Shown: positions 41,044-58,384 of the stretch, piece after piece
Numbering within the stretch: the first letter of the stretch is position 1
Layout: every line of letters starts with the position of its first letter
Origin: Octopus vulgaris
Taxonomy: Eukaryota
Reading direction: 5' to 3'
Assembly: GCA_951406725.2 (NCBI GenBank)
Contig: OX597828.1
Span: 48,236,001 to 48,300,000 of the forward strand
Length of the DNA: 64,000 nucleotides
Notes under the pieces: model-generated
Seen by the model: only the letters and a program-made list of their open reading frames with translations
What the model was told of the DNA's origin: nothing
Databases searched by the model: none
Made by a program: the position numbers and the translations under genes

Positions 41044-44000
41044 GTGAGTTCAGTTATAGTTTTTCATTGTTTTGTTTCTTTTCGATCTCCCTCACCTGTT
41101 AATTTCTTTAAGGTTTTCCCTTCTAATTGTAGGTGGGGTTACACTTTTTTTAATGTTATTTTTTATTTATTGTGGGTGGTGTGGCTATATTGTATATTGT
41201 TGGTGCAAATATTTTACAATATTCAAAATGTCCAGTTTAAACCATTTAATTGGTTGCTAAGTGTTGCCATGGCAGCTAGTCTGTATCACTAGCAGCAGCA
41301 GCAGCAACAGGTGTCATAAAGTACATGTTCCTTATTGATTTCTTTCCTTTTACATATTGTCTTCTGTATTTCTCCCCCTTCCATAGTGGCACCATGGCTG
41401 ACCCAGGTGAGAAGCAGCCTGCTTTATTATTCTTTAGTATACTTAAACTAGTATTTTCATAAGAAAGCATTAATATCATTATAGAAAATTTGTATTTTAT
41501 ATTCAAGTTTTATAAAACTATCTCTTAATATTTTAAAGCCGTCAATAATTTATGTAGATGTTATAGTTTCATTGTTATTTATTTATTTTTGTCTGTTAAA
41601 ATGTTCCATTATTTATAAGTGTGAGACATGTACATGTCTAGATTTATAAGCTATTATAATTTCAAATATACCAATGAATTAAATCAGGCTGCTCCATCAA
41701 TTAGTGTTAGGTGAATTTCTATGGCTTAACTTGTTGATTCGCTTCATCCCTTCCCTTTCTAATGATCCCATGTCATGGTTGCTTTAGCATTTGTGATTTA
41801 GATTATTAATTATCCTCCCCAACCAGCCTGTCCTACAGGCTGGTTTTTGAACAAAGCTTTTGCAGGATAGTATCGCCTACTCCTCCACAGCTAGGAGGAT
41901 GTGAGCAGGTGCTCATTGGTTGTTGCTAGGCCACTAAATATCAACAAAAAACTGGTGTATTGGGGTGTAAAGAGCCATTTAAGTAGTGCTACTAGTCAGG
42001 CTGGTTCATTCATTATCAGTTATTCCATTGGCTACATCACTATCATGCTGCTCTTTAGACCTGAAATGTTGTCTAACAAGTCCACAGGCAACCAGTTTTC
42101 ATCCCTCTCTGTCTTACTTTTATACACAACAAAAGAGATGATGATGGGAGTACATCAGTCTTGTTTAACTCCTACTTGAACACACACTCACACACATGCA
42201 GTGAAAACTAATGATGTTTTAACTGACCACTTTTTGGTCAATAGGTCACCTTGGGGTATGTATTTTCTTTCAGATGAATTTTTAAAATTTTATTTTTGTG
42301 ATATCTTTACATTTTTTTTTCTATTTTGTGTGTTTATCAACTTTTAACATCTCCAATTTTATTTCCCTTTGGCTATTTCTGTGTTGTATATTTCAAGTCC
42401 ACTTAATGCTTCTCTTTAACTGAAATTGAAGTAATTATATTTTATTGAAGAGGTGGGTGACTCTTATTAAATTTTGGCATTTATAAATTCTAAGTTACTC
42501 TTTAGTAGGACTGATAGTAATGGTTTTGTTATTTTCTTGCTCCTCATTCAGCAAATTAAGGGGTTCTGGTTATTTTTTTTTTTAAGGTTTTTTTTATATT
42601 AATATTTTTTCTCATTGCCCAAATTTACAAGAATTTTTATTTGTGAATCTGGTATTTTTCTTTATCATCCTATTGTTCCTTTCCAGTCTACTTCAGTTTA
42701 GTTCTATTTCTTCAGTGTGTGGGTTTTCTAGTTTTTCTACCTTTCATCTTAGTGCTAAAGATATACACTGTTGGATTATGTGGTTGCTAGGTGTGAGGAG
42801 TTGGTGTTCAATTGCATGTGCACACACAGGCACACTCTGGAATTGATTAGGTGTTACAAAAGAGATTAGATACATCTGAATTTAGTTTTAGGCATAGCAG
42901 TTACATCATTTTTAGCAGTTTGGCCAAAGAGACCAATGGAATAATTACGAGACTTAAAATTAGTACTGGGGTTGATTTGTTTCACCAAACCTTTCACTCT
43001 GATGCTTTAGCATGACCACACTCCAATAACTGAATCAAGGTAAAAGATAAAAGATGAAAAAAAAACTATCTTTTCATGTGTCATGTGTTGAGTCTGAATC
43101 TCCATCTCTTTGTTAAAGGCTTTGGTAAAACACTCTCTCTCTCTCTCCAGAATTATATTTGATATTCACTGTTAGGCATGTTGATTAATAATGGTAGTTG
43201 GTGTTCCACATGAAAAGAATTTTCATTTGAGTCTTCCTGAGTTTACTGTCAGTTCAGTTGGAGTTGAAAGCTGAGTTTAGCAGCCATTTTATCAGTTTTC
43301 TCTATCTTCATGCAAAAGAAGCAGGTACCTTCCTACTTGGCTGATTTACCTGTTGCTACCCTTTATTAATCTTAAAGGCACTCTTTTTACCTTTAGATTG
43401 ATTGCTGGGGCTATTGTAGGCATTTTTTTTCCATATGCAATTTCTAAAGATTTACTCTAGTAATTTGTAAAATTTTACTTACATGGATGGCTTGTGAAAA
43501 AATATTTCTGTAAATTAAACCCCCTAAATATTTGTTAGGGAGCTGCTTTTTATATATATACTTCTGTGTATTACAAATGAGACTAATGGGTTTTTGTTTT
43601 TCATTTTAATTGATTTTTCAACAGGCATAATGAAGCGGCCACTAGAACAAGAAGATGATGACTCATCGATGAAGAGAGCTCGTGGCAGTGGGCCAAAAAT
43701 TGAGTTAAGAATTTTACTTCAGAGCAAAGTAGGTTTCCAAAAAAAAACCCTTTTAAAACAATTCAATTTTGGGTCCTATTATTATTGCTGTAGTTTTTCT
43801 TCAATTAAAATGCATTTAAAAAAATTTTTTTTTTGGTGGGGTCTTATTGGATGTTTTCTGCAACACTTGCCCTTCTAATTTTGAGCAGTTGGTCTCCTTT
43901 CTTCATATGTCCATACCACTTATTGCATTAGCTTTTAACTTCTTTTTACTCTTGTGCTTTTCAGCAATACTCATAATTGCTGCTTCAAAATATCTTTCAA

Positions 44001-47000
44001 AAATGTGTGATAGTGTAACTGATATAAGCGAATAGGTTTAGAATAGTTTTCTTTGCAAGAAACGAACTAGATTTTTTTTTTTTTTTACCTAGATGTAGGC
44101 TTGCATTAATATCAGTTGATTTTTAATTTAACTAAACACACACACACACTCCCTCTCACCCACACTTGTTGAATAATAACAAAGTTTGTATTTGAAATGT
44201 CTTTCAGAATGCTGGAGCTATCATTGGCAAGGGTGGCAGTAATATTAAAAGATTAAGAGAACATGTGAGTATTTCTAATTCAACAGTTTTTCCTTTACCA
44301 TTTTCTCATATTATATTTTTTACTGTTTTTGTAATAATGAAAACAAAACTAGGCATTGCTTCTGCCTAGATGCTAGTTGCCATTTTATAAGAAGGTGACA
44401 TTAATTATTCTCTTGAGGGTGGGTGTGTTGTTATCAGTAAATATTAGTACCGAGTATTTTTTAAACTTTGTCTTAAAATAGAGATTAGAAATATATATCT
44501 ATCTAACTATTTATCACATTTTGTTGTAAATATTTCATCTTTGAAAGTAAAGAGATGATTATCCTTTATCTTCACCTTCATCGGAAAATGAACTTCGAAA
44601 GTAGTGAAGGTTGACCAGTTTGTTTCATTGTCCAAATTGGCCGTCAAATTTGACAGTTGTATCTAACAACTATTTATCATATATATATATATATATATAT
44701 GTGTGTATATATATGTATATATATATGTGTGTGTGTGTGCATATAAGTATATAAAAAGCACACCACATGAGATGCTATTTTCTGTTCTTACCCATCTTTT
44801 TTCTTTTTTTTTTAAGAAATTAATTCCCATATTGTATATTCAAACTGAATTGTTTTTCTTTTTTCTTTTTTTTTTTGTTTATATATTAAATTTTTTTTTT
44901 TTTTTTGTCATTTTAAATATAAATATTGAAATCTAGCTTAGTTTATTTGTATTTCATTTTTGAAACTGACATTGCTTTGTTTTATTTTTTCAAATTTTTT
45001 TTCCATACGGCTGCAATTCTGTTGTGATGTCTGGACTAAAATAAATAAATAAATAAATAAAATAAATGAATTTTCAAAATGATCTTTTTCACAAAGCATG
45101 CAAAATATTTAAGATCGAAACTAGTTTAAACTGTCTTTCTTATTTTTTTTTTTTCCTCCCCTATCTCTCTTTCTCTTTTTCTAACTTGTTTCTTGTGAAA
45201 TTATATGATCTTACTCCTGAACTTTTGATGATGATAGTTTTTTTCCCAAACTGGACTTCCAGTGCATGTCTAATAAATGATAAATGTAGCATCTGAACCC
45301 GACTATAGTGATTATAATAACTTGAAACGCTAAGCAGGAGTTGTAAAGGGGTCGAGAAGTAACCCCAGTCTTGCACAAAAGATGGAGGTGCATTTAACTT
45401 ATAGCTAATTCTCCTTCTTTATTCCTTTTAGGTATTATTTCTTTGAACAATAACCATGCATGCAAGAATGTTTTATTACTATGGAACAAAAAAAAAAAAA
45501 CTGTATTTATAAAAAGAAATTTTTTCAAATTCTGCTTGTTGACTGGGATGTTCCCCCAATCTGAAATGTAAGGCTTTGCACTGTTGTTCTTTTTATCAGT
45601 GGCAGCTGAATTCGACCAGCCAGCAGTTAATATCGTGAAGATATGTGTGAGGGGAAATGTAACTTTTCCTCTCTCTTTCTCTCTCTCACTCTCTCTCTCT
45701 CTCTCAGGAACAAAGCAGCTTCCTTTCTCTTTTATAACCCATTCCCGGGAACCTGTCTGTCTCTAAGAAGGGAAAAACTGAATTGAGGAGAAAGAGAACT
45801 AGTCAGAACGTTATAGGGGAAAACAAGACTTTCCCTGCAAGTATCTCTCAGTACTGCAAGTTTGTCTTAACTAATGCCTCCAGTTTTTATTCCACAGAAT
45901 TTCAGCCCCGTTGAAGTTGACTTGTTCAATGAATGTATGGATTCCATTTATATTACTTTTTTATGCCCATTGTGAAGATTTCTGGTAGTAATACTTTGTT
46001 ATATATATCTTGCCTGCCCCATTCTTCTTGCCCTTCCATGTCCACCAATGGCCCGTCTGTTGACCCTGAATATCCCTGACCCACGGAACGTCATCCCTGC
46101 CCGTCCGTCCGTCCATCCATGATGCAGTTCAAAGCAAGTGTTACAGTGCCCGATTGCACCGGCCCTGAACGGTATGCACCCTACTGCATTGTACTACTAC
46201 ACATTTTATTAATAACTGTTTCATAATGTTAAAAGCCCATTGTAAGTTCTTTTTTCTCCACACTGTTTTTACATTTTTTTCTTCCCACCCTTTCAAAACT
46301 TATCTGATGTCATTCACTCTTTAGTTCTTTTTTTTTACTTCTATTTAAATTTATTTTCCCACTCTTCTGTCACCCTCTAAATTTCTTTTTCTCTCTTTTC
46401 TCTTTCTCTCTCTCTCATTCTCTCTTATACCCAGTAAATGTAGCTAGCTAGTTAGGATCTTGGGAAATAACCACATACAGAGCTCAATAACTTGGAATCT
46501 GCATTACTCCCTGCTAGATGTATTAATATTCAGTCCATCCTGCCCAGCGATTCCCAGTCAACGACCAAATGTAAAATTGGGTACTTCATACTCATTATAG
46601 TTCCTTGTTACAGCTTCAAAAAATAAAATATTTAAAAAAATTGTTTATTTGCTTTTTCATCATGGGTTTCTATTTTCTTCTACTGCAATTCACTAAGTGA
46701 TCAACAACTTGACTTTTTTTTTTATACAATTCATATTGTAATTTAGATGTCTATCATAACTCTAATATAGTTTTCTTTTAATATGGAAGTGTTAAACCAG
46801 CAGCTATTATTACTATCCTCCAAGTTAGTGGATGACACTTGAAAAGTTGTATGTGCTCTGTGAATTGTAAAGATAGTTGTATATATTTATTCTTAAGTCA
46901 TTGAGTTCTGTATCAGTGGAGATCTCTGCTTAAAAATGAAAGGGCTTGGGTTTAAACAGCCTAACAATTACTTTGGGTATTTAGTGGTTTTTTATTTATT

Positions 47001-50000
47001 TTTAGTTTCATCTTCATGGTTTTTTTTTTAATATTAAATTCTCATACTCCAAATTCCCCTTGCTTAATTATATTTTTTAATAAAAAAAAAAAAAGTATTA
47101 ATGTATATTTATAAATATATTTTATTTTCCTTTTGAGATTTACTAATTTATTAGAACTTGCTTCATGTCACTTAAAGGAATACTTCATCACTATCAAAGA
47201 CCTAATTATCAAAGCTAATATTCTAGTAATTTAATTCATTTTATTCTAAGCTTTGGGTTTCTTCTGCACTTAACCATTCCCTCTTAATAGACAGCTTCAT
47301 ATGAAATGTGACACAGCTCAGAGTTTTAAATACCGTTTGGTTTCTATATATATATATATATCTCTACATAATATGAATTTGTTAAACAATAAAACTCCAA
47401 TGTTTGTAAGGACTAAATTCCAAGGTCTCTAGATGATATAGCTGCTGAAAGAGGTTAGAACTAGATTTCAGTAACTGAGTAAATGTAGTTCGTTCATCTA
47501 CACAGCATATCGTGAACGTTTAGTACAACAGTCAGTTAGTTTATTTTATTTTATTTTTATCCATTTGAACATTCAGATGGATTATGCACTTAGTTATTAA
47601 TCTGCATACCAGTCTAGTAAATTGGTATTTTTATTTTTAAAATTTTTTTAAAATAAAAGACATCTTGACTTATATTGTTTTCTACAGCTATAATTATTTT
47701 AAATCCTTTTTACATTTTACAGAATTTTGACAATTGGTGCAGACATAGATACAGCATTGGACTGTTTGGCAGACATTATACCATCCCTTGAAGATGTATG
47801 TATATTTCATGTAGTCTTTTGTAAAATATTGTCTATATTGAAGCTTCACTTTTCTGTGTTATTATTGGGATAAAAATCTAAGGCTCAATCTCTGTTGCAG
47901 TACAAACAGTTCTCCAATGATGAGTATGACTGTGAAATAAGAATATTGGTTCACCAGAGCCAGGCTGGTTGCATTATTGGTAGAGCTGGTTTTAAGATCA
48001 AAGAGTTGAGAGAGGTGTGTATCTTTCTTTGTTCTTCATTCTTTAGTGTCTATATTTTTCTCTTGCATTTTAACCCTATTTGAATGTTGAAGTTTTTTCT
48101 TACACGTCTCTATAAATATCAAATATTTCAGAAAACTGGAGCAAACATCAAGGTGTACTCAACCTGCTGTGCTCAGTCCACTGATCGTGTTGTGGCAATT
48201 TCTGGTCGACCTCCTGTGGTCATAGCTTGCATTAATGTTATTTATGAGCTTTTGGAAATGGTAAGACAATATATATTTTTTATGTTTTCTATTATATATT
48301 ATAGTAAATGTTTCAAAACTCTTCTCAAATACATAATTGTAAAGTAAATGACATGGTGTGAGGAACAGGCAACAGTTGGTGTATAATGGTTCCTCTCTCT
48401 TCTGTAGGCACCACCGAAAGGAGTTAACCAGCCATATGATCCACATAACTATGATGAGTATTACGCCCATGACTATGGTGGTTACACCATTGCAGAGGGG
48501 GGCCGTGGTAAACTACCTAGGGGTGCCCCGCCACCACCACCACGAGGAGGTGTCTCTCCATTGATGAGCCCACAGATAAGAGGACGGTAAGTTAACTTTC
48601 CAGATTTATATATAATTAGACGCTAGCATAAATAGCATTGTTTTTAAAGTACTGTAGTATGTAGAAACTTAAGATCTTTGATCACTTTTCATATTTAAAT
48701 GCTGCATTTGAAAAACATACCTTCATAAAATATTCCCTAATTAATATATTAAGTCACCCATTTAGTTGACTTGCCTGAAAATTAAGGGAAATAATTCCCT
48801 CGTCCTTATTTCATGTATAAACTTCAAAAGTGTTAATTTTTAAAATTTATTTCATTATTTCATCTCTTAACCCTTCATCAAGTATTTGAAGTATTTTCTT
48901 CATTGTATCATTTTTACTTCCCATTTATTTTATTCATTTGTTCTTCATCACACCTGAGTAACTTCATTAGTGTAATTAAGAAGTGTAGTGTTAATAAACA
49001 AAGCTATTAGCAAAGTGAGCCTTTGATCAAAACATAATTCCTAGCCACTACTTTTGATCCATAGATTTAATTTCCAGTAGCTCTATCCTAACCATTCATA
49101 AGATATTCGCATATTAGAGAAATGCAAGATCTTCTAAAGATACATATGTTTGTGTCAGTAATACTATATCTTAGAATATTGACTTAGAGATTCTCTGAAA
49201 AATTAAAATGGCTCAGTTTTTTTTTTCTTAGGTTTTGTTTTCTCTTTATTGTAAGTTAAGTATTAATGAAGTTTCACTCTTATCAATATTAAGGTTAATA
49301 TCAGTTTATGATATAGTTTTTATATGTAGATGTGAACTAGTTTGTGGCCACTGATTTTTTGGCAATTTTTATATAAACAATGATTTTCATTCTCTATATT
49401 TCATGCTTTGAAATGCTTAAATTTGAACTCCAAACTTTTGGATTCTGCTGTAAATAAGTCTGAATTGTGAAAATTTCAGAGGTACTGCTGGAGGAATGGG
49501 AGATATGGGCATGGGAGGGTCTGGCTCCATGAGCAGGGGTGGACTACCTAGCCTAACTGGAGGTAGAAACAACATGGGTGCTGCTCTCCCCTATGGCAGT
49601 GGTGGCGGTGGCAGTGGGGGCAGAGATGATGGCCTGCAAGAACTTGGAGGAATGAGGTAATAACACTCTATCATACTAGTGCTGTGCAGCAGAGATACCT
49701 CTAGAGAGGGCCCCAACCATCGTTAGATTATTCCTCTTGAACAATTTGTAAGTTTGTCAAAATTATTCTGTAGCCAAGTTCAATCTACAAACAAAAAACT
49801 TGCAAACTAATCAATGATATTTTAAAAACAAAACAAAACAAATTCAACAATCCAATTTTCATCACATTTTATTACTTTTAGTGGTTAAGTTTATTTCGAA
49901 AGCTTGTTGATTTTTTTTGCCTTTTCATTCAGTATTTGCCCAATTTCTCTTGAAGCTGTGCACTTACGAGTTGATAGTGGCCTTAAGTGTTCTAATTGTG

Positions 50001-50355
50001 GATTGAGTTATTTGTCCTAGGCAAACGTGCACAAAATAGCATCTAGGCTTAGCTTCCCTCTTTAGCTCTCCCCAAATTTCTGTCTAGAGGTATCACTGAT
50101 GGTCCTAATTAGGATTTAAATGTTATTCGAAGAATGTTTTATTGTTTTCTTTCCTCATTAAAATTCCTATTTCACAATTAAAATCAATATTATACTCTCT
50201 TCTAATGATCTCACTCACCTCAAGGTAAACGTAGTCACATCTTTTTCCTGCACCAAGCAGTTCTAACATCTTCATTCTGTTGAGTCAGACGGCATTAACT
50301 CACTAAATATATTTCTGTCTTCTGCAAATCTCTTTATTGAATCTAATTCATCAAA

Positions 50356-50396
<41 letters not shown>

Positions 50397-53300
50397 GGTA
50401 AATATTTTATTAGTTTCTCATTATCTCATAATGTTCCATGTTGTAGCTATTATTTCATTTCTAGTTCCACATTTATTTCAAATCTGTACTTTATAAATAT
50501 TAATCGGCCAAATGTTTCAATAATTTCAGGAATGCCATGAATGGCAGCATGGGTGCTCGTGCCGGGCGTGGAGGAGGTAAGTAAATTGCAGATTCTCTCA
50601 AACTCTTCAGCATTATTACTTTCTCTTTCATCAACATTTTCCTAAAATGTTCCCTTTTTTCCCTCCTCCCCTTTCAGATAACAGGTTTGGCAATCCTGCA
50701 AGAGGAAACAGTGGCCAAGGTTTCTATGGTGGCCAGCAAAACTTTGCCCAAGACAGTATGGTAAGTTACTTCAGTTATTAACTTTGTGATGATTCAGATG
50801 AAATATTTTGAGATATTATTACCCCTCCTTTTTTTTTTCCTTCCAGGGTGGTATGGGAAATCAAGGGATGATGTTTGGTATGGAACAGACTACAACCACA
50901 CAAGTAACCATTCCCAAGGAGGTAAGTTTCATTCCATTAGTTTCGCTGTACTTAAAAATTTTGCTAGAGTATTCTTAAAAAGAGCCATGTGTAATTTTGA
51001 ATTTTGTCCCTTTTGTTTCTCCCTCCATTTAGCTTGCTGGTGCCATTATTGGCAGATGTGGAACTCGCATTACTGATGTGCGGCGCCAGTCTGGAGCCCA
51101 AGTGGTTATAGATGAAGCCCTTCCTGGTTCCAGTGATCGGATAATTACTATCACAGGAACTCAAGAACAAATTGATGCTGCACAGTTTCTCTTGCAGAGC
51201 AGGTTAGTTGAATGTCATGTAAAGACTTGGTCTTTTTCTCCTCTTTGTTTCTCCTCTTTCCTCTCTTCTATTCCTCATTGCATTGCATTCTGTTGGTTGT
51301 AAACAAAAGAGACACTAATGCCTTGATGAGAAATTGTATTAGCTATCTGTACCTTCATCTTCCATTACTCACATGTACTAACCTGTTTTTTTAGTGACAC
51401 TAAAACTTTTTACTACTGTTACTAAAAGTAAATCCAGTGCACGAAGAATTAATTCTATAGAATGGTTGCCACTTGATTTCCCATCCTCTCGTAGGAAAGC
51501 TTTAATTATTGATACATTATATCAAAAGGAATTTGCTATTTGGTTAATTTGATAATTGCATCTTTATCTAATTGTTGGTCCATTTAGGATTTACACAGCA
51601 TAAATTAGTATAGTTTTTATTTAGTAAGCTAGCAAAATGTATAATATATGCCAGAGAGAGAAGTGTAGGTTCAGTTTGAACACCTTTAGAAAAACTAAAC
51701 ACTAAGATAAGAGTGGTAACAAGTATTACAAATTCTCATTTATCCAATGTAAGGAAAAAAACAAAGCTTCGTTTTATTGATATCTTTTTTTTATACAGTT
51801 AGAAAGTCTGTTAACTTTTGGAATCTAAATTCTTAGTTTAAATGTCTTTTAAATAAAGAAAAATATTAACAGATGTATAAATCGAATTTATTTCTTAAAA
51901 TCTAAATGTGTGTTATTGTGTTACATTGTGAAGTAAGGGAGTGTTTCCTCTAAAGATTAATGTTCTTGTTGTAGCCATTACTTTTTCACAAAGTAGCTTT
52001 AGGTTTAAAATTTTGATGGTACCAGTTTAATGGGTGTGGTTAAGGCTTTCTTGGTTAGCATTGGGTGGCATCTGGTGGCTATTGTCGATGATGTGCATGA
52101 GACATTGGTGATGGGATTTGGCTTGTAACTAACCTTTGGCACCCATGGTCTGGAAGACTAATGAATTTTGTTGTTGTGTAGTGTGAGAACAATGAATCAT
52201 TATCTTCCTGAACCATGGATGTAAGTAGCAGCAACACCAGCTCTTGCTCATCCCTATCCTCTTCTCCCTTCCCTCACAACTGCCACTCATTCGATTGACC
52301 CCCTCCTGGATCCCTTGTTGATGGCTGCCCACCACTGCTGCTTTGCTAACCTTCAGCTCTGTTTCTGCTGCTGCTACTATTGTCATTACTACTACTATTA
52401 CTACTGTTTGCTACTATTATTATTATAACTACTACTACTATTGTTATAACCACTATCCAGAACTGGTACTGTGATTGGCATGTTACAAACTAATTTTTAT
52501 TTAATATTTTTAAATGTAAAATAATGAAATGTTTAAATGTGCATGACATGTTTACAGAGCGAAATTACGGTGAAAACTGAAGCAACTTGTTGGAATCGGT
52601 TTAGAATTCTTCCTAAATTTTAGATTTCAATTTTAGGAAAGTTTCCATGCGTCCTTGGTATAAATTATTATATTCTAATAATTGATTTGACATACAAAGT
52701 TAATAATTAATACACGTGTTGATTAAATGTCTTGTGATTTGTTGCCCTATGTGTTAGGTTTGTGTTGAAACTGGAGATAAATTCTAATTAAGGTCTTTAG
52801 GAAATATTTAAGTCAGGAAGTATAAATACGTACATAGCTGAAATTTAAAAAAAAATTATCTACAATAGCTACTGTCAGTGTGGGTGCACATTGATGGGAA
52901 ACCTAAGTATGAAATATACTAAGTTACATGAATTGCAGGATAACACTCCTTTCTATTATAGGCACGAAGCCTGAAATTTTGGGGTAGGGGTTAAGTTGAT
53001 TATATCAACCCCAGTGCACAACTGGTACCTATTTCATCAACCCTGAAAGGATGAAAGGCAAAATCAACCTCAGTGGAATTTGAACTCAGAATGTAAGGAC
53101 AGATGGACAAAATGCTACTAAGCATTTTTTGCCTGGCATGCCAACGATTCTGCCAGCTCACTGCCTTCTAGCAGGATAATAACAGTTGTTTACTGGAGAA
53201 CAATTCTGCAACATTGCAACTCTTATACAGCATATTCTTTCATGGCAGCCTGGTTTTTGTTTTTTCTTCTCTGGCTGTAAATGGCAAGCAAGTAGAAAGT

Positions 53301-55114
53301 GTTCATTCCCAGCTTAGGTCAGTTGTTAGCAAATGTCATTTTGAGGAAAGTTTTTTTTTTTTTTTAAATTTTACTTAACAGCCAAGTTTTTAAGGGAAAA
53401 AGTAAAATTTCTTGAAATTATAAACCAGAATGGGGTTCTTGTTTCAGAATTTTTTTGTTGTTGTTTACTGGGTACAATAATACCCATTAAATCGACCCAG
53501 TCTTTGACTAATCAAACTCAAAAGGTTGGAATGACAACACAAAGAGATACCATTCATTGCCCTTATAAATGCTAAAAAAAACACATTTTCTAACAATTTT
53601 CCTTTTCCTATTCATATACTCCAGAAAATGGTTTCTATTGCTAGTTATTTCCTGTTGATTTAGAAATGAAATGCATTGATTTATTTTGTTGGAGATATAT
53701 TTATAGTTTGGAAACTGAGTTACAGGTGTTCCAGACAGGTGACTCAGTTTGAAAATTTGTTTTGGTAAACTAGTCAGATGTGTCAGTTTGTAGAATCTTT
53801 GGCATCAGTTGGTAAATGAAAATAAGTAAAGCTTAATAGAATTTTTATGTGTTGGATATTTAGATAAGAAGTGAGCAACTGGACTAAACAAAGTTTTTTG
53901 TGCTTTGTTCAGACATAAATAGCTTTTCTGTTAATTTCCATTCTCAAACTCTGACTGGTTTTAACCTTTTTGATACTAAATTCTTATTTTCAAAATTAAA
54001 TAGAACAGAGGCAGTGTATTGCAACAAAAGGGTTAAAATATTTAACATAACTTTTCACATACAACTTGATTTATTAGCACAATCGTAGAAACTATCCACA
54101 GTGATGTAAGGATTAATCAATTAGATTTCTTTCTGAACTTCTTAGGAATATTATAAAAATCGTATCTAGTTCTAACCTGGTTATTGCTACTATAACAACA
54201 TAAAGGTTGTTTTGTGATGTCCAGTTGTTGGAACATCCGATTTCTAAAACTGTTATGCTCTAATCCATAGACAATTTACTGTAATTGCATTTACCAACAT
54301 GTTTTGACTACAACGTTGGAGAGTTTAATTCCTGCAAACTTCCTTTATATGTATTGTTTCATATCAGTTTTGCTTTATGTACTTGATTATATATAAGTAA
54401 CTAACTTCAAGATATGTATGCTTATATATCGTAAGCTGATATTCATGTTCCTGAAAATCAGATAGCTTTGAATTAACTGATAGCATTTATCAAACTTGTG
54501 TAATTGTGGGAAAGGGAGAATTTTTAGTTACAACATAGGAATAATCTTGGCTTATAATGAAAATACTTTTTTGTTAGTACCTACAGAGTTGGGAGAAGTT
54601 ATTTTCACATTTGTTTCTCAGACCTAGGGATTTTAAAACTAGTCGATTCTAACCCACAAGCCTACTTACTGTTCAATGTGTTGTGTATCTACATCATTGC
54701 TCCAACTAGTTCGTAGGGAAAGCACTAAGACATGTAGACTAATCTCTTACACACTTCCTACACTATACCATGATCAACTGTACTTCATGTTTATTTGTTT
54801 TTTTAATTTCCCCAACCCCTTAATCTCAACTAATTCACCTTTAGCATAAGAAATTTACTGTCAACTTACAAATCTTACTGCCATCATTTTATATAGTTAA
54901 ATTTACTATTGTATTCAATAATAGTGGAGAGGCTAGATTAACCGTCCCAGCCTCTCTCTTGTAATTACAGGTTATGTTTTATATAAATTCTAGTTGGATT
55001 TTTTTCTTTGTAATTTATTGATGAAAATGACTTAATTTTATTATTGTCTTTTTGATAGTAAATCATTTTCCTCTTTTTGTTTTCAGTGTGCGGAAATATT
55101 CAGATAAATTTTGA
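41028..55114 (+). CDS. HNRNPK: heterogeneous nuclear ribonucleoprotein K (spliced, 14 coding exons, ~431 aa)
   Basis: Exons 41028-41043, 43625-43728, 44208-44264, 46128-46171, 47723-47795, 47901-48014, 48132-48260, 48408-48586, 49480-49656, 50530-50576, 50678-50760, 50847-50921, 51033-51202 and 55087-55114 join through GT-AG introns into one open frame of 1296 nt. Motifs: MKRPLE..KRAR NLS, KH1 ([26 protein letters not shown]), KH2 ([28 protein letters not shown]), [20 protein letters not shown]/Pro-rich region, KH3 ([20 protein letters not shown]) and C-terminus SVRKYSDKF, matching the hnRNP K architecture. Confidence 0.95.
43625..43728 (+). CDS. HNRNPK: hnRNP K exon: NLS and start of KH1
   Basis: tttttcaacag| [35 protein letters not shown] |gtaggt. 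Confidence 0.93.
44208..44264 (+). CDS. HNRNPK: hnRNP K exon: KH1 GxxG loop
   Basis: ctttcag| [19 protein letters not shown] |gtgagt. Confidence 0.95.
46128..46171 (+). CDS. HNRNPK: hnRNP K 44-nt exon (KH1)
   Basis: gatgcag| [14 protein letters not shown](R) |gtatgc; similar to vertebrate YNASVSVPDSSGPER. Confidence 0.93.
47723..47795 (+). CDS. HNRNPK: hnRNP K exon: end of KH1
   Basis: ttttacag| (R)[24 protein letters not shown] |gtatgt. Confidence 0.93.
47901..48014 (+). CDS. HNRNPK: hnRNP K exon: KH2 N-terminal half
   Basis: ttgcag| [38 protein letters not shown] |gtgtgt. Confidence 0.95.
48132..48260 (+). CDS. HNRNPK: hnRNP K exon: KH2 C-terminal half
   Basis: tttcag| [43 protein letters not shown] |gtaaga. 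Confidence 0.95.
48408..48586 (+). CDS. HNRNPK: hnRNP K exon: Tyr-rich linker and Pro-rich/RGG region
   Basis: ctgtag| [48 protein letters not shown]... |gtaagt. Confidence 0.93.
49480..49656 (+). CDS. HNRNPK: hnRNP K exon: Gly/Met-rich low-complexity region
   Basis: tttcag| (R)[21 protein letters not shown]...QELGGM |gtaata; phases compatible with both neighbours. Confidence 0.85.
50530..50576 (+). CDS. HNRNPK: hnRNP K exon (RGG)
   Basis: tttcag| (R)[15 protein letters not shown] |gtaagt. Confidence 0.85.
50678..50760 (+). CDS. HNRNPK: hnRNP K exon
   Basis: ctttcag| (D)[27 protein letters not shown] |gtaagt. Confidence 0.85.
50847..50921 (+). CDS. HNRNPK: hnRNP K exon: start of KH3
   Basis: ttccag| [25 protein letters not shown] |gtaagt. 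Confidence 0.92.
51033..51202 (+). CDS. HNRNPK: hnRNP K exon: KH3
   Basis: catttag| [56 protein letters not shown] |gttagt. Confidence 0.95.
52137..52223 (+). ncRNA. mir-7: miR-7 precursor hairpin (5p mature ~52151-52174) in last intron of hnRNP K
   Basis: 5p UGGAAGACUAAUGAAUUUUGUUGU(U) carries the miR-7 seed GGAAGAC and pairs with the 3p arm AACAAUGAAUCAUUAUCUUCCUGA. Lower stem CCAUGGU/ACCAUGG; basal UG at -14/-13, apical UGUG, CNNC at +18. miR-7 is known to lie in the last intron of hnRNP K in vertebrates and Drosophila (bancal). Confidence 0.95.
52945..53167 (-). mobile_element. SINE family C in last hnRNP K intron
   Basis: Same unit as the 15330-16295 array. Confidence 0.75.
55087..55114 (+). 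CDS. HNRNPK: hnRNP K terminal coding exon
   Basis: Long T-rich acceptor tttcag| (S)[11 protein letters not shown]; similar to vertebrate SVKQYSGKFF. Confidence 0.92.
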
Positions 55115-57229: not shown

Positions 57230-57470
57230 TTTGGAGTAAAGATTGTTTGCCAACATAACATGGCAGTCCTGTTTAGAACAAGTGTTGCTGTAATTTAGCC
57301 CCAGGAGAAAATGTTTCCAGCTGGCTATACGACATGATCTGCTAGATTCTCTTGTTTGAAAATGTAAGGAAACAGATCATGTATAGCCAGCTGGAGATGG
57401 TCTCTTGGGGCTAATATTTGTCCTAAGCCAGGACTGCCATGTTATGTTGGTAAACAATCTTTACTCCAAA
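57230..57470. repeat. ~240-bp foldback inverted repeat
   Basis: TTTGGAGTAAAGATTGTTTGCCAACATAACATGGCAGTCCTG..CCAGCTGGCTATAC..ATGATCTG is mirrored on the right arm. Confidence 0.88.
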
Positions 57471-58384
57471 GTACTGTTGCTCAATCTCTCTCGTGAGATT
57501 TACAAATAGTAATTTTCTAATCATGAAAATTGTTCAAACTGAAGTCCTTGAGTGACACATTTTTCCATTCAAGTCAATACAGAATTATAGATAGTAATTA
57601 TGGACTTTCGATTTACTGTCGGCTGACTTTTGGCCAACCCTGTGTATTCCAGCTGGTTCTGATTTTTGTGGGTTACCATTTAAATAATGTTTGTCTTATG
57701 ACAAGAATTGTAGCTTTTGGGGATTTTCAATTCCAAAAAAAACGTTGGAATTCTGTTCTGTTCCTAGCTAAGAAGGGCCCACTGATGGCCCCTTTTTATA
57801 TTTTGGTGTAACAACATTAATTTTCCATGAAATGTACATGAATGTTGATTTGTCAACTACACGCTCCGACTGGGGTTACCCCTGCAGCAAGACACCTGTT
57901 TGTCACTGTATCATAATCTGATCTCTCATCACCTGGCACAAAACCACTCCCTTTCAGTTGAGGTGTTTTGCAAGTTATTTGGTGTCATTGGTAGTGCTAG
58001 TGCCTCATATAAAGCACCTAGTGCACTGTAAAGTTTCGGGCATCAGGAAGAGCATCCAGCCATAGAAACCATTCTAAAGCAAACAGAGCTTAGTGCAGTC
58101 ATACAGCTTGCTAGCTCCTGTGAAACTGACCAATCTTTTCCAGCATGGAAAACTGGTTAAATGATGAGCAGACAGCCTAATCTTTTATTTTAACATCCAC
58201 TTTTCCATGGTGTTGACAAGACTTTGGGCTGGTTTTTAGGGTAGTACTTCCCATAGTCCTTGAAACAGCTCAATGGTTGAACAACTGTTCACTGAAGACT
58301 ACGTACTGGCCATGCAAGATTGGCTTGCACAGATAGGTATTTGAGACGTTTTCTACGACTGGATTCACCGCCTGTTGTCAACCC

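Follow-up and report, generated by a model that had tools for sequence, protein, structure and literature searches.

The last coding intron of the hnRNP K gene of Octopus vulgaris carries what is probably an ordinary intronic miR-7 gene, with the long-range helices that can be drawn around its hairpin arising as a by-product of a G-rich upstream and a C-rich downstream flank. An initial annotation had placed the hairpin at the tip of a selected, sequence-specific RNA scaffold of about 450 nt, built of six strictly nested helices (H1 to H6). Its underlying observation, a tendency of the G-rich and C-rich flanks to pair with each other about the hairpin, is borne out in the predicted fold. The selected scaffold itself fares less well: it shows no gain over composition-matched shuffles, three of its six helices lie outside the predicted ensemble, a similar predicted enclosure recurs at other octopus microRNA loci and at random placements of the hairpin, and H5 and H6 lose pairing in a distant relative.

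The miR-7 locus and its host gene

In the window (the whole stretch of 64,000 nucleotides that was analysed) the hnRNP K gene lies on the plus strand, and the exons of its protein P0002 map to 43612-55111 by tblastn. The exon immediately upstream of the miR-7 intron shows 100% identity to proteins named hnRNP K of Octopus vulgaris, O. bimaculoides and O. sinensis, and the Rfam mir-7 match falls squarely in the following intron (Table 1), so that the placement of miR-7 within hnRNP K was right from the start. A hidden coding exon in this region was considered and rejected: the 13 stop-to-stop frames are of 30-93 aa and low complexity, and the annotated protein skips the region. This arrangement is a known one. 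Because human MIR7-1 likewise occupies the last intron of hnRNPK (PMC4600152), and Mir-7 is already listed among the microRNAs expressed in neuronal tissues and suckers of O. vulgaris (PMC9699675, table S5), the core of the locus adds nothing new.

The hairpin scores 41 bits against a gathering score of 51.8, and it is because of this shortfall that a default Rfam scan gives no match; the low score itself is due to two changes in the mature arm together with a divergent star. Orthology to mir-7 rests on the seed, the single genomic copy (the miR-7 pattern has one match only in assembly G000) and the host intron; the octopus locus shares seed, hairpin and host intron position with the RF00053 family and human MIR7-1. 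The region 52130-52232 folds with a z of -4.85. The star arm matches the variant mature miR-7-5p, and the variation alters the 3' supplementary region. A looser miR-7 pattern retrieved 88 loci of other animals from metagenome contigs, many of them near-duplicates from related species and not independent. The A at mature nt 11 is common to 29 of these 88 and the extra A at nt 15 to none, the exact octopus mature sequence was found at no locus in the metagenome contigs, and a KH exon lies at most 1.5 kb from miR-7 in 11 of the 88. Apart from a few short chance matches, these loci resemble the window in the hairpin only. A main-text literature search found no paper with the variant mature sequence, which is probably already in MirGeneDB.

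By the definitions in PMC6298569 (as far as its available text gives them), the canonical motifs of a Microprocessor substrate are present, namely a basal UG, an apical UGUG and a downstream CNNC. A mismatched GHG was not evident when the hairpin was inspected by eye. Directly upstream of the basal UG, UAACUAAC occurs at 52125-52133 (+), which we take to be a QKI/HOW-type or a branch-point-like motif. The ACUAAC site within it has no change listed in the relatives X15, X16, X18 and X20 (see below), and the same QKI-type motif stands at equal distance in one other miR-7 locus (L011). A deeply conserved QKI element was rejected, the motif being present at 4 of 62 miR-7 loci against about 2 expected, i.e. 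not enriched. For human pri-miR-7-1, regulation by QKI has been reported (PMC4600152).

Table 1. Features of the octopus miR-7 locus and its flanks, in window coordinates. Pair probabilities of H1-H3 and of the initially annotated H4 are from the partition function of 52010-52480.
Feature	Position	Strand	Basis and remarks
hnRNP K penultimate coding exon (KH3)	51033..51202	+	tblastn; 56 aa, 100% identity to Octopus hnRNP K P0001/P0002
hnRNP K last coding intron (GT...AG), host of miR-7	51203..55086	+	splice ends; junction yields the P0001/P0002 C-terminus
G/U-rich 5' flank	52016..52136	+	G 32%, C 12%; carries the 5' arms of H1-H6
H1 5' arm	52019..52027	+	partner 52461-52469; pair probability 0.995; extends to 13 bp (52016-28 / 52460-72)
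H2 5' arm	52031..52042	+	partner 52447-52459, 2-nt bulge; pair probability 0.92
H3 5' arm	52053..52060	+	partner 52344-52351; pair probability 0.99
H4 region	52063..52078	+	predicted partner 52329-52343 (G-U-rich), 0.85; initially annotated partner 52320-30, 0.001
Block common to distant relatives	52105..52237	+	pre-miR-7 with about 30 nt of 5' flank and 13 nt of 3' flank
ACUAAC	52128..52133	+	mostly unpaired in predicted fold; presumed QKI/HOW-type core
pri-miR-7 hairpin	52137..52224	+	Rfam RF00053, full-length match, E 5.5e-7, 41 bits
Basal UG	52137-38	+	sequence; position -14; cut sites by homology
Mature miR-7-5p	52151..52175	+	ends placed by homology; A at nt 11 and an added A at nt 15, with the seed unaltered
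Apical UGUG	52175-78	+	sequence
C/U-rich 3' flank	52225..52353	+	C 40%, G 14%; includes C patch 52251-52277 and H3 3' arm 52344-51
CNNC motif	52229..52232	+	about 18 nt past the 3p end placed by homology; unpaired probability 0.42
TAC/TAT/TGC microsatellite	52354..52445	+	about 92 nt; lag-3 identity 0.67; predicted looped out, unpaired 0.74
3' arms of H2 and H1	52447..52472	+	arm matching and pair probabilities
hnRNP K last coding exon up to stop codon	55087..55114	+	splice reading and tblastn

Composition and predicted fold of the flanks

The region around the hairpin does stand out from the intron, as had been remarked: it is GC-richer, G-skewed upstream and C-skewed downstream (Table 1), against 15% each of G and C in the intron. 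A polarity statistic, chosen after the locus was seen, is at least 25 in both flanks at 2 of 12,818 control positions (at 8 with the sense reversed). Among 9,660 positions in 200 kb of genome, 8 attain the summed polarity of 60, which none of eight other octopus microRNA loci and none of 60 other miR-7 loci attains. The octopus flanks are far more G/C-polar than those of the 60 other members of the mir-7 family. As a separate observation, 49 of 60 distinct other-animal miR-7 loci (L010-L097), many from related species and not independent, themselves lean G-rich upstream and C-rich downstream. Polarity as a general property of octopus microRNAs was rejected, given that the other eight loci span -25 to +17. 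Our literature searches found no description of these G/C-polar miR-7 flanks.

The absence of a recognisable repeat, also part of the initial description, holds for most of the region, which has no genome matches elsewhere, and fails at about 52354-52445, where the microsatellite lies; all 85 other genome matches fall on the microsatellite part (query positions 322-461). The microsatellite is polymorphic in length, with a 6-nt insertion in X4, X10 and X12. A transposon or foldback origin of the scaffold was discarded, there being no genome match beyond the microsatellite part, as was a reading of the 5' arm as a decayed triplet repeat (lag-3 identity 0.25, without periodicity; the 3' arm is weak at 0.39). 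H1-H3 and the nested pairs around the hairpin are absent from the 25 longest of the 62 inverted repeats in the intron.

The six helices had been read correctly as strings: all 12 arms are in place and nested. As a structure the set divides. The outer helices H1-H3 are predicted with high probability (Table 1), consist mostly of Watson-Crick pairs and keep probabilities of 0.87-1.0 when folded at 18 C as well as within 1.1 and 1.6 kb of sequence; H4 as initially written, H5 and H6 reach 0.001, 0.001 and 0.017, respectively, and forcing all six together costs 9.7 kcal/mol. The helices are of 7-13 bp, the longest continuous one being of 13 bp. Closure onto the pre-miR stem through H5 and H6 is not predicted; the basal flanks are about half unpaired, and H6 forms solely in folds of the isolated core (0.37; MFE of 52105-52240).

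Comparison with shuffled sequences and other loci

The folding test against shuffles that had been proposed along with the scaffold did little for it, giving a z of -1.60 (4 of 100 shuffles) with the hairpin included. A segment trimmed to the helix ends yields a z of -2.6 against whole shuffles (1/120) and of -1.5 and -1.6 against flank-wise shuffles (10/120 and 6/120), with 85 enclosing pairs versus about 58 in the flank-wise shuffles (3/120 and 1/120). For a segment fixed beforehand at ±300 nt, compared with 63 shuffles of 50-nt blocks that keep local composition, the real energy is equalled or beaten in 29 of the 63, the 38 confident enclosing pairs (probability >0.8) in 22, and the total of 88.5 expected enclosing pairs in 24. 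Stability above composition-matched controls is absent in the fixed segment and borderline only in the helix-trimmed one; composition-keeping shuffles cannot tell whether the composition itself is selected. The best local duplex score between the flanks, 51, is reached by flank-wise shuffles in 16-23 of 2000 trials and at 47 of 632 window positions, and a physically meaningless parallel-strand control outscores the true antiparallel pairing (66.5 versus 51).

Of the eight other octopus microRNA loci, two have at least 38 confident enclosing pairs predicted (mir-8 with 72 and mir-1 with 50, a mir-10-family locus following at 37); as many are predicted in 5 of 60 random genomic placements of the miR-7 hairpin, at 3 of 47 other-animal miR-7 loci and in none of 25 placements within the window. 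The total of 88.5 is exceeded at one of the eight octopus loci, in 4 of the 60 genomic placements, at none of the 47 other miR-7 loci and in none of the 25 in-window placements. These model folds put the locus within the top tenth by predicted enclosure, a rank for which its base composition suffices.

Left out of the octopus microRNA count were one duplicate (L107) and two loci (L101 and L102) that score as mir-9. The latter (1300-1800; G000:C1:103518208 and C4:61992146) are perfect foldback elements of hundreds of nucleotides, with several more genomic copies, whose centre scores above the Rfam mir-9 cut-off on both strands; they are likely a MITE-like repeat, as either a mir-9 false positive or a source of miR-9-like hairpins. 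At a further locus (L106, 11-1570, minus strand) mir-71 is followed by seven mir-2 family hairpins inside 1.5 kb, which is the known mir-71/mir-2 cluster.

Variation among relatives

Relatives were compared in eight of the 24 listed runs, and the parts that X15, X16, X18 and X20 leave uncovered were not counted as absence. The distant relatives X16, X18 and X20 align at 80% or more only over 52105-52237, with 6-7 differences. The four that are listed comprise two loop changes, a U-G in place of C-G in the lower stem, and a change at an unpaired position. No change is listed in their mature arm, and conservation of helix-arm sequence was not found in these three beyond the shared block. The X18 contig runs on for a further 265 nt upstream and 135 nt downstream, ending short of the 3' arms of H1 and H2, without a further alignment at 80%. 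The loose ends of this contig, 30 letters each, resemble the window loosely, 13 of the 30 letters past 52237 being C. By eye, the 5' arm of H5 ends in X18 in a C without partner, and H6 retains three of five pairs in register.

The nearer relative X15 covers 51927-52156 and 52171-52359, with nine listed changes in the scaffold, a list that lacks one substitution and 14 gap letters. None of the nine falls in the initially annotated helices (P about 0.04; 0.25 for H1-H3 alone). Four lie within 1-5 nt of a helix end, two break and one keeps predicted inner pairs, and none is two-sided. Within the 5' flank, substitutions are as dense (4 in 121 nt) as they are outside it (3 listed in 89 nt). The close relative X12, which covers the whole stretch, has no changes in 364 scaffold nucleotides versus 2.3 expected (P 0.10). 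Two-sided compensatory changes were absent from the 17 listed variants that were mapped, a small set that falls short of a full orthologue set. Among the runs compared, no diverged orthologue was seen that carries the 3' arms of H1 and H2 in full length. On these sequences the near relatives lean slightly to constraint, and the distant relatives lean against deep conservation of the helices.

Alternative explanations of the flanks

The behaviour of the outer helices could still reflect an octopod-specific selected scaffold, a long stem in which H1-H3 (and H4) hold the flanks together and the microsatellite is tolerated as a bulge. Such a stem would display or screen the hairpin and modulate cropping. 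We regard this as unlikely. The persistence of H1-H3 in every context tried, the flank duplex score (P about 0.01), the position of close-relative variation in the looped-out microsatellite and the sparing of helices in X15 would all suit such a stem; its inner half, however, is not predicted, the enclosure shows no excess over composition-matched shuffles in the fixed segment and is paralleled at other octopus microRNAs, no change is two-sided, and distant relatives have no 80% match outside the shared block. Structural gating of cropping has precedents: the tertiary fold of miR-17-92 gates its processing. In pri-mir-30c-1 the CNNC is occluded by flank structure, to go by the available text of PMC6298569, and the octopus flank pairing could likewise hide or expose its CNNC. 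Whereas both precedents rest on probing and mutation, the octopus fold is a prediction that is not better than composition-matched shuffles. Doubtful too is the reading in which selection acts on the flanks as single-stranded tracts that bind proteins, such that the host protein sets miR-7 output: the C/U patch would bind hnRNP K or a PCBP and the G/U side another factor, and binding would compete with the loose G-C pairs close to the CNNC and the basal junction. The C-rich 3' side, for which resemblance to hnRNP K sites had been claimed, does hold a real C patch (52251-52277). It is the densest YCCC cluster on the sense strand of the gene (1 of 467 windows), with a density shared by 24 of 3,040 genomic windows, it is unpaired at 0.54 in the predicted fold, and the C-rich loose end of X18 is consistent with it. 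Human HNRNPK binds degenerate C-rich patterns (10.1101/201996, in the part of the text available), but the octopus patch fits neither of two published HNRNPK patterns against which it was compared, and the hnRNP K gene holds 19 C/U-rich patches, of which this is one. It is absent at all ten hnRNP K-linked miR-7 loci of other animals (0-2 YCCC downstream), and 4 of 50 unlinked loci have 7-8 YCCC downstream. Processing of human pri-miR-7-1 is controlled by several proteins, i.e. HuR/MSI2, SRSF1, NF90/NF45 and QKI-5/6 (PMC7337520, PMC6298569, PMC4600152); in the available portions of these papers the regulators bind loop, stem or QKI elements, and neither hnRNP K nor a long-range flank duplex is named. 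Feedback of hnRNP K on miR-7 may occur, and would then be lineage-specific; our literature searches found no description of host-protein feedback on an intronic microRNA.

In a composition-encoded switch, which we hold to be rather improbable, the G/U-rich 5' and C/U-rich 3' flanks of cephalopod pri-miR-7 would zip in many registers around the hairpin, and hnRNP K would open the inner part at the C patch by the CNNC, thereby determining how much of the neural microRNA within its own intron is made. As selection would here act on base make-up and not on pairs, both shuffles and covariation would miss the element. Least probable is an enclosure that acts as an ADAR-recruiting duplex, editing pri-miR-7 or blocking its processing. 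Known long-range ADAR substrates involve editing complementary sequences and inverted repeats; the octopus pairing is likewise intronic, long-range and imperfect, but its helices are short, neither an edited site nor covariation was seen in the sequences compared, and far longer foldbacks occur in the same 64-kb window. Octopus A-to-I editing lies mostly in introns and 3' UTRs, which would suit such a duplex, yet in the available text of the same source no microRNA editing of functional importance is reported for octopus, and Mir-7 has no row in the editing table, as available (PMC9699675). Over the stretch no A>G was found in the X4 and X8 contigs, whose status as RNA is a guess and which bear the same organism label as the best DNA sets; this result excludes majority editing only, because contigs drop minor variants. 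A single A>G at 52298 is seen in X15, at a depth of 3.4 and in another organism, and cannot count as editing. Elsewhere in the window, a long imperfect inverted repeat lies at about 57230-57471 (+), some 2.1 kb past the hnRNP K stop codon, with a duplex score of 117 versus 51 for the miR-7 flanks. If in the 3' UTR, it would be a far better candidate ADAR substrate than the scaffold.

Mechanistic interpretation and implications

We return to the reading of the locus as an ordinary intronic miR-7 gene, which we hold to be likely. The hnRNP K pre-mRNA would carry a canonical pri-miR-7, of which Microprocessor likely crops the local hairpin. The working signals would be the hairpin itself, the basal UG, the apical UGUG, the CNNC and those short flanks that the distant relatives retain, i.e. 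a working unit that roughly corresponds to the conserved block of about 130 nt. Around it, the polar flanks would fold loosely: H1-H3 and the G-U-rich H4 are predicted to close about the hairpin and to leave the microsatellite as a loop, the basal junction being half open. H1-H3 may form in the nucleus, as the folding models suggest, and would represent the best-scoring outcome of this composition, without selection on particular pairs. Selection is probably not on particular helices, because almost any ordering of the flanks encloses the hairpin equally well. More generally, G-rich and C-rich flanks always yield a neat nested fold, and scaffolds of this kind therefore need flank-wise shuffle controls.

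The rare composition of the flanks is the residue of the finding and the sole lead worth following in cephalopod orthologues. A neural microRNA is here produced from a ubiquitous host transcript, and control at the level of cropping is therefore plausible in octopus too. The microRNA expansion of this lineage has been linked to the complexity of its brain. If the flanks do gate cropping, miR-7 output could by this means be made neural-specific in such a lineage, and the locus would constitute a case of feedback by a host protein on its intronic microRNA.
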